Source: a virus
Virus record (IMG/VR): IMGVR_UViG_3300035670_013237
Location: 120,001-152,000 of that record
Direction: 5' to 3' (one strand)
DNA length: 32,000 nt
Each line of letters starts with the position of its first letter. Within the stretch, counting starts at the first letter, position 1. The notes below the pieces were generated by a model, which did no database searches, had not been told where the DNA came from, and worked only from the letters and a program-made list of their open reading frames with translations. Both the position numbers and the translations under genes were made by a program. Below, one piece after another: positions 6,760 to 15,628 of the stretch.

Positions 6760-6779
6760 TTCCGAAAAAGTGGGGGGAG

Positions 6780-6810
6780 GGTGCAAACCCTCCCGGCTCC
6801 ATGATATAAC
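6780..6810 (+). promoter_or_regulatory. promoter cassette (6857..7093)
   Basis: A-run, GGTGCAAACC in the loop of stem GGGAGGG/CCCTCCC (6775-6794), 15 nt, TGA-TATAAC. Leader TTCATCCGGTGGGGA. Confidence 0.65.
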
Positions 6811-6856
6811 CAATTCATCCGGTGGGGATGGTGCCCTAACCGGCAACGGAGCGAAA

Positions 6857-7093
6857 ATGTCAACGAACGTACTCAGCATCCGGACCATCACTGACCTTCT
6901 TACCCCGGCCGAGCGCAACGAGTTCTGGCATTACCTCGGAGGAGAGGTTACTTCTCGTGAAGCCGAAACCGGGATCGTGGGCCCCTCCAAAGTAAAAGAA
7001 ATCCTGGGGTTCTATATGGATCTCACTGCGAAGGACTCCCGCGACCGCGGCATCGTCTTTCCAAAGGGCGCCAAGTTCCAGCTTGAGCTCTAA
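6857..7093 (+). CDS. hypothetical protein, paralogue family B (with 14003..14248 on the minus strand)
   Basis: ATG 6857 inside listed ORF 6578..7093. Promoter 6780..6810 and leader lie inside the long ORF, so the N-terminal extension is rejected. Shares VLSI.TITD.LTP.E...FW.YLG.EVTS.EA.TGIVGP..VK...PKGAKFQLE with the minus-strand copy. Confidence 0.75.
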   Translation: MSTNVLSIRTITDLLTPAERNEFWHYLGGEVTSREAETGIVGPSKVKEILGFYMDLTAKDSRDRGIVFPKGAKFQLEL

Positions 7094-7109
7094 AAAAGTT
7101 GGGCACGGG

Positions 7110-7140
7110 GGTGCAAACCCCCGGCCCCCTGTGGTACAAC
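7110..7140 (+). promoter_or_regulatory. promoter cassette (7187..7525)
   Basis: AAAAAAGTT 7092-7100, GGTGCAAACC in the loop of CGGGGG/CCCCCG, 15 nt, TGG-TACAAC. Hairpin 7151-7170. Confidence 0.65.
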
Positions 7141-7186
7141 AGACTGGAGAGGTGGGGGGCGGTCCCCGCCCAGGAGGGGATCGACC

Positions 7187-7525
7187 ATGATCATCAACGA
7201 ATACCACTTGGGCTGGGGCTTCATCCACGCCTACGTCACCCCCGGCGACCGCATCGAACTTTACACCTTCAGCAACGGAGCTCTCGAAACGGTCAAGGTC
7301 TTCCGCGTAGGAGACACCGCGGAATACGACTCGGACAATACCCGCTATCTCGGCCTCCGCTATCTCGGCACCATCCGCTCAATCACAGCGAAAAGCGTCG
7401 CCATCCGTCCCACCTACGGGTCATCGACGAAGTGTCTCAACTTCGACACCTTCTCATGGCGCAACTGGTGCTTCGACCTCGGCGAGGCTGAAGCATACAA
7501 TTCAGAGGTTTCTCGCGGTGTCTAG
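7187..7525 (+). CDS. hypothetical protein, paralogue family A
   Basis: Listed ORF. Promoter 7110..7140, hairpin 7151-7170, SD AGGAGG. Aligns with 4081..4398 along its whole length. Confidence 0.75.
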   Translation: MIINEYHLGWGFIHAYVTPGDRIELYTFSNGALETVKVFRVGDTAEYDSDNTRYLGLRYLGTIRSITAKSVAIRPTYGSSTKCLNFDTFSWRNWCFDLGEAEAYNSEVSRGV

Positions 7526-7554
7526 TGTAAATCCTCTACGAACCGTGATACAAC
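7524..7554 (+). promoter_or_regulatory. promoter cassette (7598..7873)
   Basis: AGTGTAAATC, 15 nt, TGA-TACAAC. Positions 7526-7553 are identical to 9313-9340. Hairpin 7565-7584. Confidence 0.65.
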
Positions 7555-7597
7555 AGATTCAGGTGGTGGGGATGGTACCCCGCCAAGGAGAATGACG

Positions 7598-7873
7598 ATG
7601 CAGTTTGCTTCCTCCAAGTTTGAATGGAGCCCCAAGGGAACTGGTTACGCTTTTGCAGGTGACCTGCTGGCCGACTGCCGAGCCCCCGCGGCCTTCACGG
7701 TCGTCTCAGACCGGACCGGAGTCGAGAAGACCTTCAAGCTCAAGCCCCGCTATGTCCCCCAGTACCTCTACCTCGAGGAAGGATATGCCCCTTATGACCA
7801 CGACGACGGACCCGACGATGGAGTCGACACCTACAGCTCGGACGATGGATTTGAAATCCTCATCGTCTTTTGA
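7598..7873 (+). CDS. hypothetical protein (91 aa) with acidic C-terminus
   Basis: The listed ORF starts at 7592. The AAGGAGAATGACGATG context is the same as at 4462-4477, so the second ATG (7598) has the proper SD spacing. Promoter 7524..7554, hairpin 7565-7584. Confidence 0.7.
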   Translation: MQFASSKFEWSPKGTGYAFAGDLLADCRAPAAFTVVSDRTGVEKTFKLKPRYVPQYLYLEEGYAPYDHDDGPDDGVDTYSSDDGFEILIVF

Positions 7874-7880
7874 GACATCC

Positions 7881-8123
7881 ATGATGTGGGACCTTGAGTG
7901 CCCCATCTCATCCCCCGAGCTGGAGGTACCTGGCAACGACGCCACGGTCTTCCTGGCGGGGGCGATCGTCGGGGTGGAACCACCCATCCGAGCTGTGATC
8001 ACCACAGTGAATGAGTGGGGTTGGGCCAACGTTCGCTTCACGTTCTCCTCCAGGGAAGCTGCGGATGCATGGACCGCGGCTGCGCTGAGCCAGATTGACG
8101 CTCTCTTTCGCGGTGAGGTATAA
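7881..8123 (+). CDS. hypothetical protein (80 aa)
   Basis: ATG 7881 inside listed ORF 7605..8123, 8 nt after the stop of 7598..7873. The upstream part of the ORF overlaps that gene. Confidence 0.6.
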   Translation: MMWDLECPISSPELEVPGNDATVFLAGAIVGVEPPIRAVITTVNEWGWANVRFTFSSREAADAWTAAALSQIDALFRGEV

Positions 8124-8187
8124 CCCACTCAGGCGAACTGCAAGCCCAGCCGTGTCATCGTGCTCACGGGAGAAAAAGTGCGCTGAC

Positions 8188-8218
8188 GGTGCAAATCTCC
8201 CGTGAGCGGTGGTACAAC
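8188..8218 (+). promoter_or_regulatory. promoter cassette (8262..8507)
   Basis: GAAAAAGT, GGTGCAAATC inside the loop of the 10-bp inverted repeat CTCACGGGAG/CTCCCGTGAG (8163-8206), 15 nt, TGG-TACAAC. Confidence 0.65.
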
Positions 8219-8261
8219 TGGTTCATCAGGTGGGGACGGTTCCCTGCCGGGGAGATTGAAG

Positions 8262-14292: not shown

Positions 14293-14323
14293 GTTGTACC
14301 ATAGGTTGGAGATGGTTTGCACC
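14293..14323 (-). promoter_or_regulatory. promoter cassette (14003..14248)
   Basis: The minus strand reads AAAAAAGTTT, GGTGCAAACC, 15 nt, TGG-TACAAC, then TAATTCATCCGGTGGGGAATGGATCCTCCCGG. Confidence 0.65.
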
Positions 14324-14350
14324 GCCGCAACAAACTTTTTTAAAAGATTC

Positions 14351-14998
14351 TTAGCGGCTCCACTCGAACCCGGGCGCAACTGTGCCGAAGGCTTCGTGCA
14401 CCTTGTCCACCGCCTCCGCATCGATGTGCCGGAGGTCCTCAGCGGTCAGCGCCCTGCCGTCCCTGCGGTCGACCAGCATGTGCACAACCGCGGTGGAGTA
14501 CCGCTGCGCGAGCCCGTCGTGGCTCCGCTCTGACAGCACGCTCCAAGTCGACAGAGCCGCCGTCGGGAGCAAGACAGTGTCCTGCCGAGCGTCCAGGATG
14601 AGACAGATGCTGTCGACGAGCGCTCCGTCGTCTCCCACGGTCCTGTTCGCCACGAGGTCCTCGATCAGCTTCTTGGTGACCTTCTTCGACCACGGGTGCT
14701 CGCAGTGCATCGGGGTGCCCCCCGACACAGGACCCAGGCGCCACCGAGCTCGGTTGTAGCGCGTCTCAGGCCCACGCCACTCGACGGGCAGCTGCGGGAG
14801 CGCATTGGTGGCTCTATTGAAGGCAGTGAGACGGGCACTTCTCTGAAGGCCTGAGACCCCATGGGGAGCTAGTTCATCTCGGACACGCATGAGACCCAAC
14901 CATGCCCGCGCGGTCTCCTTCAGTAGTGCCCAGTACTGGGGCTCTCCGCGGAAGTCAAGCCACTTGCCGTCAGGATCGATGTGCTTCGGTCTAGTCAT
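14351..14998 (-). CDS. hypothetical protein (215 aa)
   Basis: Listed ORF with GC-rich third codon positions. The long upstream control region contains a perfect ACTAGT-bearing inverted repeat. No family recognised by eye. Confidence 0.75.
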   Translation of the reverse strand: MTRPKHIDPDGKWLDFRGEPQYWALLKETARAWLGLMRVRDELAPHGVSGLQRSARLTAFNRATNALPQLPVEWRGPETRYNRARWRLGPVSGGTPMHCEHPWSKKVTKKLIEDLVANRTVGDDGALVDSICLILDARQDTVLLPTAALSTWSVLSERSHDGLAQRYSTAVVHMLVDRRDGRALTAEDLRHIDAEAVDKVHEAFGTVAPGFEWSR

Positions 14999-15100
14999 AT
15001 ACTACCTCGGCCTGGGGAGTGCCACTCCCACTCCCGTCCCTCTGCTTCTCTCATGAAGGTAGTCCATCAAGGAGCCCAGAGAAGCTTCAACTCAGCTCAA

Positions 15101-15128
15101 ACTAGTAGTCACCGGAGAGACTACTAGT
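15101..15128. promoter_or_regulatory. perfect inverted repeat ACTAGTAGTC-N8-GACTACTAGT (operator candidate)
   Basis: 10-bp arms at 15101-15110 and 15119-15128, about 100 nt upstream of the start of 14351..14998. A TCTAGT variant lies at 14990-14995, next to the start codon. Confidence 0.55.
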
Positions 15129-15150
15129 ACACCAAGCGGAGGCTCTTAAT

Positions 15151-15184
15151 CACAAAAGAGAGGGTCCAGGCTGGACCTCTCTCG
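15151..15184 (-). terminator. promoter-proximal terminator-like hairpin in the leader of 14351..14998
   Basis: The minus strand reads GAGAGAGGTCCA-GCC-TGGACCCTCTC followed by TTTTGTGA. It is enclosed by a second 10-bp pairing CCAAGCGGAG/CTCCGCTTGG (15134-15143 / 15189-15198). Confidence 0.45.
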
Positions 15185-15201
15185 CTACTCCGCTTGGGCT
15201 T

Positions 15202-15233
15202 ATTATACAAGGATGGGCCCGGGGGTTTGCACC
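15202..15233 (-). promoter_or_regulatory. promoter cassette followed by terminator-like leader (upstream of 14351..14998)
   Basis: On the minus strand, GGTGCAAACC sits in the loop of the 11-bp stem GGGCCCGGGGG/CCCCCGGGCCC (15215-15242). 16 nt, TATAAT. Confidence 0.55.
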
Positions 15234-15252
15234 CCCGGGCCCACGGACCCCG

Positions 15253-15453
15253 TCAAGAGAGGGGGATTATGGTAACCCCCGGTTTCTCCACGAAGAGGCC
15301 CGAGTCCGGCTCCTGGCCCGTGACCGCGAACACATGGTCATGGAGGTCTTCGTCCGGGAGGAAGAGGGCGCCGAAGGGACCGTCCTCCTCGAAGAGGGTG
15401 CCAGTGATGGTTCCGAGCTCGGGATAGTTGGCGTTGGTATAAGCGTAGCGCAT
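15253..15453 (-). CDS. hypothetical protein (66 aa)
   Basis: Listed ORF. Promoter 15503..15533, leader 15471-15499, SD AAGGAAG. Confidence 0.65.
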   Translation of the reverse strand: MRYAYTNANYPELGTITGTLFEEDGPFGALFLPDEDLHDHVFAVTGQEPDSGLFVEKPGVTIIPLS

Positions 15454-15502
15454 TTGCTTTCTTCCTTTTGCCGGGAGGATCCATTCCCCACCGGATGAAC
15501 CA

Positions 15503-15533
15503 GTTGTACCATGGTTGGGCTGGCTTTTGCACC
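15503..15533 (-). promoter_or_regulatory. promoter cassette (15253..15453)
   Basis: The minus strand reads AAAAAAAGTT, GGTGCAAAAG, 15 nt, TGG-TACAAC. The leader is identical to that of 14003..14248. Confidence 0.65.
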
Positions 15534-15580
15534 GCCCCGCGAACTTTTTTTGAGCCCCACCGCGCTGAGGGCAGCGGGCG

Positions 15581-15611
15581 ATTATACAATAGGATCCCGG
15601 GGGTTTGCACC
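15581..15611 (-). promoter_or_regulatory. orphan/tandem promoter cassette (no ORF before the next cassette)
   Basis: On the minus strand, GGTGCAAACC sits in the loop of CCGGGGG/CCCCCGG. 15 nt, TATAAT. Only about 45 nt separate it from the A-run of cassette 15503..15533. Confidence 0.5.
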
Positions 15612-15628
15612 CCCGGTCCCAACATTCC

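Follow-up and report, generated by a model that had tools for sequence, protein, structure and literature searches.

Promoter and stem-loop modules resembling PeSLs in the small-gene arrays of an uncultivated jumbo phage

A stretch of 32,000 nucleotides from an IMG/VR virus record (IMGVR_UViG_3300035670_013237, positions 120,001 to 152,000; hereafter the window, numbered from its first letter) contains about 32 copies of one promoter family of the form GTG(C/T)AAA-N14-TGnTAYAAC. In some of these promoters the -35-like box GTG(C/T)AAA is enclosed by a GC-rich hairpin. Here we describe the anatomy of the promoters and their stems, the relationship to known promoter cassettes and the functions that the stem may have. 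The modules are probably composite regulatory cassettes of the promoter-early stem-loop (PeSL) type, situated in the small-gene region of an uncultivated jumbo phage. A sequence-only reading of the window had listed eight of the hairpins and taken them, on the strand opposite to the genes, for intrinsic terminators.

A promoter family with optional stem-loops

The box (GTGYAAA) occurs 42 times in the window against 6.4 expected, and the bipartite motif GTGNAA-N15-TGNTAYA is found 24 times against 0.01 expected by chance. All bipartite copies are oriented toward the next gene, so the decamer does behave as the -35-like box of a promoter family, as the sequence-only reading had it. A module measures about 100 bp between the upstream gene's stop codon and the next start codon. 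Its first part is the stop codon, which in many copies runs into an A-run; then come the box, 14 nt of spacer, an extended -10 (TGnTAYAAC), a leader hairpin, GGAG and ATG. The alignment gives an optional A5-8 followed by GT, approximately 10 nt, GTG(C/T)AAA, 14 nt, TG(G/A)TACAAC, AGATTCA, the GC hairpin GGTGGGGA...CCCCACC, GGAG and ATG, and the consensus from 64 promoters is aaaaaa.tt...gGTGcAAA.Cc...TGgTACAAc.gAtTCa..GGtGGGg. Downstream of each promoter lie the leader hairpin, a GGAG-type ribosome-binding site with its ATG 20-45 nt past the -10, and a small gene of unknown function. The anatomy is that expected of a sigma70-type promoter in which the -35-like box is non-canonical, the spacer measures 17-18 bp and the -10 is extended. 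Pattern scans of IMG/VR and of a genome collection gave single chance matches only.

The promoters that carry a hairpin at or next to the box, two stemless modules for comparison and examples of the leader hairpin are as follows.

544-567, plus strand: stem of promoter P553, TGTGGAGG/CTTCCACA, 8 bp with one sense-strand G.T pair, 8-nt loop tGTGCAAA; A-run 528-535
6765-6856, plus strand: module P6781; A-run 6765-6769; 7-bp stem 6775-6781/6788-6794 (GGGAGGG/CCCTCCC), loop TGCAAA 6782-6787; -10 TGATATAAC 6802-6810; leader hairpin; ATG 6857
7091-7186, plus strand: module P7111; stop codon TAA 7091-7093 fused to A-run 7092-7097; 6-bp stem 7106-7111/7118-7123 (10 bp with one bulge), loop TGCAAA 7112-7117; -10 TGGTACAAC 7132-7140; leader hairpin; ATG 7187
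8162-8261, plus strand: module P8189; 12-bp arms 8162-8173/8196-8207; 22-nt loop containing both the A-run (8173-8177) and GTGCAAA (8189-8195); -10 8210-8218; ATG 8262
11520-11573, plus strand: module P11544; 9-bp hairpin 11520-11545 ending at the box GTGTAAA 11544-11550; -10 11565-11573; then tRNA-Lys
13540-13618, minus strand: module P13596(-); A-run 13610-13614; 10-bp stem 13580-13589/13596-13605, loop TGCAAA 13590-13595; -10 TGTTATAGC; ATG 13539
13907-14005, minus strand: module P13986(-); stop codon TAA 14003-14005 fused to A-run 13998-14004; 8-bp stem 13972-13979/13986-13993, loop TGCAAA; -10 TGGTACAAC; leader hairpin 13927-13945
15199-15252, minus strand: module P15232(-); 12-bp stem 15214-15225/15232-15243, loop TGCAAA; no A-run; -10 TTGTATAAT, spacer one base longer
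15575-15628, minus strand: module P15610(-); 7-bp stem 15597-15603/15610-15616, loop TGCAAA; no A-run; -10 TTGTATAAT; in tandem with, and 78 nt upstream of, P15532(-)
14286-14350, minus strand: control module P14322(-); same A-run (AAAAAAGTTT) and same box, no stem
7525-7591, plus strand: compact module P7525 (GTGTAAATCCTCTACGAACCGTGATACAAC); box abutting the upstream stop codon, no A-run, no stem
4048-4067, 4440-4461, 4734-4753, 6114-6135 and 13927-13945: examples of the leader hairpin

All eight hairpins of the sequence-only reading exist where it placed them. Six of them have a perfect GC stem of 6-12 bp that closes exactly on the loop TGCAAA; the hairpin at 8162-8207 has a wide loop and that at 11520-11545 ends at the box. 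A ninth case, at 544-567, lay outside the range of that reading and likewise differs in geometry. The stem-bearing share of the window promoters is thus 6-9 of 32. When the arms were permuted 5000 times among the 32 promoters, stems of at least 6 bp averaged 0.59 with a maximum of 5, against the 6 observed.

For a wider sample the window was combined with seven related loci from a JGI metagenome scan, found with a pattern that ignored the stem region. Further IMG/VR relatives found through a DUF2201 protein were approximately 50% identical with a drifted box and were not pooled. Of the resulting 68 distinct promoters, 18 (26%) enclose the box in a stem of 6 bp or more, and in 14 of these 18 the loop is exactly TGCAAA. 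The arms vary between copies (GGGAGGG, CCGGGGG, GGGCCGGCGG, GGGGAAGG, GCCCGGGG, CGTGGT) and complementarity is kept. Both sides had changed in six of eight stem pairs, a result matched by none of 500 shuffles, in a set selected for at least 5 pairs and hence biased toward pairing at the inner pairs. Arms that covary in only 18 of 68 promoters indicate a stem that is selected as a structure, yet is an optional addition to the promoter. The hairpin is therefore real and above chance, and it is present in only about a quarter of the promoters of this family, a point on which the sequence-only reading does not hold. Two simpler accounts were rejected: the arm permutation and the covariation rule out stems as a mere by-product of GG...CC flanks of the box, and a dimeric operator is ruled out by arm sequences that are not conserved.

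Most cassettes also have the conserved leader hairpin, GGTGGGGA-loop-CCCCACC, which lies after the -10 and ahead of the ribosome-binding site. At its third pair, T-A is seen nine times, C-G three times and T.G seven times, and C.A never. The test of G.U against A.C thus gives seven sense-strand wobbles, three compensatory C-G pairs and no antisense wobble, a pattern that identifies the leader hairpin as a structure of the sense-strand RNA. It is perhaps a 5' stabiliser or a translation element.

PeSLs and the exchange of cassettes

PeSLs were described in phages phi1 and RB49 (Arbiol et al. 2010, PMC2839356) and were later extended to T4/PST and KVP40/nt-1 (Comeau et al. 2014, PMC4122927). A PeSL begins with the stop codon of the upstream gene, which lies in an AT-rich tract; a sigma70-like early promoter comes next, then a stem-loop, and last the ribosome-binding site and start codon (PMC2839356). 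The stem-loop is often polyG followed by polyC and has five possible positions, one of which overlaps the -35 (PMC2839356). One PeSL stem-loop acted as a terminator in a reporter assay, with a reduction about equal to that by rrnB T1 (PMC2839356). Small genes of unknown function are shuffled by way of PeSLs, which also form mini-circles and between which recombination has been shown (PMC2839356).

The modules of the window share with PeSLs the stop codon in an A/T-rich tract, the repeated -35/-10 promoter, the GC stem-loop, the ribosome-binding site and the start codon. They also share the variable position of the stem-loop, the subclass overlapping the -35 included, the density in regions of small genes without known relatives, and the use as points of cassette exchange between related phages. 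They differ in several respects. The box is GTG(C/T)AAA, which departs from the E. coli -35 consensus; stems are most often centred on the -35, whereas those of phi1 and RB49 lie between the -35 and -10 or over the -10; and most cassettes have the leader hairpin as a second, conserved one. Terminator and promoter activity and mini-circles, described for PeSLs, are putative for the modules here. Every architectural feature of PeSLs that was tested is present in the cassettes; the T4-type lineage is not shared, which bears on lineage only. The sequence-only reading had claimed that no described promoter family is built this way. This is wrong because the PeSL design, with its -35-overlapping subclass (PMC2839356), matches the architecture tested.

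Contigs of related phages from four other studies contain the same genes in a different order, with the joints at the promoters (for example 7569>10281, 9329>10278, 10710>7135 and 14998>7525). In BLAST comparisons of related loci with the window, 19 of 36 ends of homology blocks fall within modules against 15.9% expected (p = 3e-7). Chimeric promoters are found, as in relative L031 at 1384- compared with P8189. P9312 is identical to the compact P7525, and a recombination point seen in relatives lies at P7525. In another relative (L026) the same modules are found in divergent arrays, with nothing converging on them. Recombination between modules is the probable mechanism of the shuffling, judging from the joints.

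The shuffling extends beyond the arrays at 0.5-16 kb. A block of relative L027 (2417-3581) matches 23049-24206 of the window and sits among early-type cassettes, adjoining blocks that match the window at 1.3-2.1 kb and 4.7-5.4 kb; the exchange is therefore not confined to these arrays.

Function of the stem and of the A-run

The stem accompanies a particular gene arrangement. A strong hairpin lies between the stop codon and the -10 in 12-13 of the 15 window promoters with a same-strand non-coding spacer of at least 15 nt, and in none of the ten that abut or overlap the upstream gene. Where it lies differs from promoter to promoter: it covers the -35, sits just upstream (11520) or surrounds the box (8162, 10260), and the distant relative L051 has stems upstream of the box or in the interval from box to -10. 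In some places a canonical terminator is found instead, with a T-run in the place of the A-run (10182-10212, 22583-22610, 28163-28182). In relative L031 (1384-) the -10, leader and gene of P8189 stand behind another upstream gene with another box and no stem. Because the hairpin occurs with a same-strand spacer, varies in position and is lost in this swap, the stem behaves like a 3' element that belongs to the upstream cassette and has been packed into the promoter of the next.

The mechanism that we propose is as follows. Wherever a same-strand gene is followed by non-coding spacer, a GC-rich stem-loop would be placed in the interval from the stop codon to the -10. In the commonest arrangement the arms would occupy the only two unconstrained stretches of the promoter, the approximately 10 nt from the A-run to the box and the -35/-10 spacer, and the fixed hexamer TGCAAA would therefore become the loop. 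The TGCAAA loop is on this account a consequence of packing and not a special presentation of the -35. The target of the stem would be RNA that reads through from the upstream cassette, on which it would act in the sense direction, either by attenuation or insulation or by protecting the 3' end as a stem-loop. The same role has been proposed for the stem-loops of PeSLs, one of which was tested for it. A sense-RNA role is the most likely one, by position and by analogy to the tested PeSL stem. The earlier suggestion that the element gives upstream mRNAs a 3' hairpin is plausible and forms part of this explanation. The repeated modules also double as recombination points that shuffle cassettes between related phages, as the comparisons above show.

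Several observations weigh against the PeSL-type reading with a sense-acting stem. The sense tail is not U-rich, with a mean TransTermHP-type score of -2.12 and 5 of 18 tails passing -2.5 (random 15-mers: mean -2.00, 14.7% passing), so that sense transcripts are not predicted to terminate efficiently here by the intrinsic mechanism. Scores at background bear out the earlier statement that the hairpin is not a canonical sense terminator. The 149 pair cells of the -35 stems comprise 137 Watson-Crick pairs, 2 sense-strand G.U, 4 antisense-strand G.U and 6 others. The wobble pairs show no strand bias, and such near-perfect pairing would fit a DNA-level or both-strand role as well as one in sense RNA. 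A-run and stem co-occur beyond independence (13/18 vs 14/50, odds ratio 6.7, p = 0.0017), also among GTGCAAA promoters only (p = 0.011); a shared need for non-coding spacer may explain this. The box differs from the canonical -35 (TTGACA), and the E. coli consensus is thus not matched. The phage is a GC-rich jumbo phage with its own sigma70-family factor and has no relation to T4-type phages. The RNA runs searched had no match to the window; activity of the promoters, their start sites and any 3' ends are predictions.

Between the end of the A-run (AAAAAAGT) and the box downstream of it there are 11-13 nt, which puts the run at about -47 to -53. This distance is 11-13 nt in 13 stem-bearing promoters and 10-13 nt in 14 of 16 scored stemless ones; in all, 27 of 29 promoters scored with an A-run have its end 10-13 nt upstream of GTGYAAA. 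A run of at least five A is found at this place in 27 of the 68 promoters against 1.8% by chance, and T-runs in seven more. The upstream stop codon can be fused to the A-run, as TAAAAAAGT at 7091 and 14005. About 12 promoters have an A-run and no stem. Since stemless promoters such as P14322(-), P15532(-), P16009(-) and P9668(+) carry the same A-run, it is independent of the hairpin.

The E. coli UP element and T4 early promoters have A-tracts upstream of the -35 that are bound by the C-terminal domain of the RNA polymerase alpha subunit. The modules resemble them in the A-run at a fixed distance upstream of a -35-like box and in the extended -10, and the A/T tract is fixed between -40 and -60 as in UP elements. 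They differ in having one short block (A5-8 then GT) at about -47 to -53. Because the distance to the box is constant with or without the stem, the A-run is best viewed as a promoter element in the UP position, with putative alpha-subunit binding. The sequence-only reading had suggested a UP element, and this part is plausible and contributes to the best explanation. Its statement that the hairpins are preceded by an A-run applies to four of the eight; the A-run is within the loop in one (8162-8207) and absent at 15214, 15597 and 11520.

The principal claim of that reading was that A-run and stem together form an intrinsic terminator on the opposite strand, which could block antisense or convergent transcription into the cassette arrays. 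The stems do resemble intrinsic (Rho-independent, including bidirectional) terminators in being stable and GC-rich (-14 to -32 kcal/mol) with a T-run nearby on one strand. Folding energies on the antisense strand are -12 to -30 kcal/mol, with a GC-rich stem and short loop present, and the association of A-run and stem noted above, with an A-run ahead of 13 of 18 stems, would be expected of such a terminator. A lenient scan rates 13580+, 13972+ and 6794- as terminator-like, and the gene blocks converge at approximately 12.3 kb, where read-through from the plus-strand block would meet the hairpins at 13580 and 13972. However, the gap from the stem base to the A-run (the T-run of the opposite strand) is 3-8 nt, with a median of 5 and never 0-2. 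The A-run is anchored at a fixed distance to the box, and the gap follows from this; the T-run is tied to the box and not to the stem base. In most clear terminators of the phage itself (9704-9732, 10182-10212, 26522, 30141) the gap is 0-1 nt, and one true terminator (28163-28182) also has a 3-nt gap (AAC). Antisense tails score at background (mean -2.17, 3 of 18 passing -2.5), no T-run is present at 15214 and 15597, there is no sense U-tract, and the stems show no bias toward antisense G.U pairs. The elements lie between same-strand genes, not convergent ones, and not at the ends of antisense units. No genes or family promoters were found on the opposite strand inside the blocks, where a weak candidate, 6405(-), points away from the hairpins, and the divergent arrays of L026 have the same modules with nothing converging on them. 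The description as a textbook terminator is not supported, and with the same A-run position in stemless promoters an antisense terminator is unlikely.

An equally unlikely alternative is an element that works at the DNA level. A GC inverted repeat around an AT-rich centre would form a cruciform or hairpin, and a structure-specific nuclease or recombinase would there start cassette exchange or the formation of mini-circles. The almost strict Watson-Crick pairing, with wobble not tolerated on either strand, and the clustering of cassette breakpoints in modules agree with it. The same possibility was put forward by Arbiol et al. for the GGGG...CCCC stems of PeSLs, and one crossover that they mapped lies inside a loop (PMC2839356). 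Yet many junctions are at stemless promoters (P7525/P9312, P10260) or at the -10 (8210, 7132, 4715), and homologous recombination between repeats of approximately 60-100 bp suffices for them. Short GC-rich arms extrude poorly, and arms that are not conserved offer no evident site for a sequence-specific protein.

In phage N4 the promoters of the virion RNA polymerase have a hairpin that is the recognition determinant in every such promoter, with a 3-nt loop near the start site. The promoter element here is likewise able to form a DNA hairpin, in this case optional (26% of promoters), with a 6-nt loop and at the -35. A stem that serves promoter recognition or regulation, by N4-like presentation of the box, by switching with supercoiling or by binding a dimeric regulator, would account for the conserved hexamer as the exact loop in 14 of 18 stems, and a phage sigma factor without the region 4.2 recognition helix makes non-canonical reading of the box conceivable; but three quarters of the promoters with the same box, spacing and -10 are stemless, the arms vary and hence form no operator, the loop size and the position at about -33 are unlike N4, and the stem shifts between promoters and relatives (upstream, enclosing, or between -35 and -10 in L051), which makes this a very improbable account.

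The phage, its sigma factor and other features of the arrays

DNA and protein searches of the window against deposited phages were both without match. The sigma factor is found residue-for-residue identical in subsurface and freshwater metagenomes, where the contigs that encode it reach 271 kb; its best match among isolated phages is at approximately 40%. Contigs of 100-370 kb carry thousands of relatives of the sigma factor and of the DUF2201 peptidase-like protein, a neighbour of the arrays with more than 2,000 relatives of its own. This places the source among the uncultivated jumbo phages of freshwater or the subsurface, as a member of a large family.

About 40 small genes occupy bases 500-16100 of the window, in a plus-strand block (0.5-12.2 kb) and a minus-strand block (16.1-12.3 kb) that converge at approximately 12.3 kb. 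Gene content and order vary between relatives. In a Pfam/PHROG scan of 30 window proteins besides the DUF2201 protein and the sigma factor, 29 had no family above the cut-off, below which one weak CHAP match and one weak BofA match were seen. A search with the small protein encoded at 14003-14248 found a single relative. G+C is 56-66% in the cassette arrays (1-19000), with a dip to 49% at 9-10 kb, and 46-54% beyond approximately 19 kb; GC skew is positive from approximately 17 kb onward.

The sigma70-family protein has 271 residues (29277-30092, plus strand). It aligns to RpoD from region 1.2/2 through region 3 to 'RLRFGL' (region 4.1) and ends 26 residues further on, without the region 4.2 recognition helix that reads the -35. 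Hundreds of its relatives are in the same length range (258-300 residues). The next gene (30089-30346) has no sigma region 4 either. In relatives whose DUF2201 protein is 64-74% identical the box has drifted, to GTGTAAG/GTGCAAG (L051), GTGAAAA (L054) and GTGAAC/GTGAAGG (L053), and the -10 TGnTACA is unchanged in all three. Drift of the box while the -10 stays constant hints at a reader of the box that co-evolves with the phage. A more elaborate proposal takes GTG(C/T)AAA as the site of a phage factor acting with the phage sigma, rather than a -35 read by region 4, and has the stem-bearing copies present the box in an extruded DNA hairpin as a second, structure-dependent mode of control or recombination. 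The logic would be analogous to sigma appropriation by MotA/AsiA of T4, and we regard the proposal as a long shot.

An Rfam search of the window gave two tRNAs and nothing else. tRNA-Lys(UUU) at 11689-11764 seems to be driven by its own family promoter, P11544, with a leader of approximately 110 nt, and promoter P11768 starts right at its 3' end. The second, tRNA-Gln(UUG), is at 27.7 kb (27694-27764).

Some promoters are followed by unusual leaders. P15232(-) is directly followed by a highly structured stretch of 70 nt (15125-15200, minus strand; -36.9 kcal/mol, z = -5.5) with a terminator-like hairpin and UUUUG, approximately 200 nt ahead of the gene 14998-14351, which could be a small RNA or an attenuator. 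At P9668 a terminator-like hairpin (9704-9732, plus strand) replaces the usual leader hairpin ahead of the gene 9776-10156. It has an A-run and a T-run on its flanks (AAAATGGGAC AAAAA GTCCCATTTTTG) and could be a leader attenuator.

Other repeats and palindromes are found in the arrays. The divergent control region at 16000-16270, between the minus-strand block and the next plus-strand block, has several A/T runs and tandem promoters, P16009- and P16099-, the latter with the box GTGAAAA. P16131(+) is followed by a run of GGGGCCCC/GGCCCC palindromes and TTAA-rich repeats. Clusters of palindromes containing ACTAGT are located at 5393-5479, 12960-13030 and 15095-15130 of the window, at approximately 6830-6880 in L051 and at approximately 990-1030 in L029. 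They lie upstream of some larger genes (12961-12338 and 14998-14351, minus strand) and are a possible operator set for a regulator. At 6405-6440, within the plus-strand block and between the genes 6222-6386 and 6511-6759, a GAAAAAAACTTTTTTTTC palindrome accompanies the weak minus-strand copy of the box (6405-).

Unless RNA data point the other way, the idea of an antisense terminator is best abandoned. The cassettes are of PeSL type in a new phage lineage and not a new regulatory principle. The promoter model, with its box, spacing, -10 and leader hairpin, can be used for annotating these jumbo phages. A cassette of promoter and built-in stem-loop, so far known from T4-type phages only, would thus also organise the variable arrays of an unrelated jumbo phage family. 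The finding favours the idea that modules of this kind offer a general way to insulate and shuffle small accessory genes.

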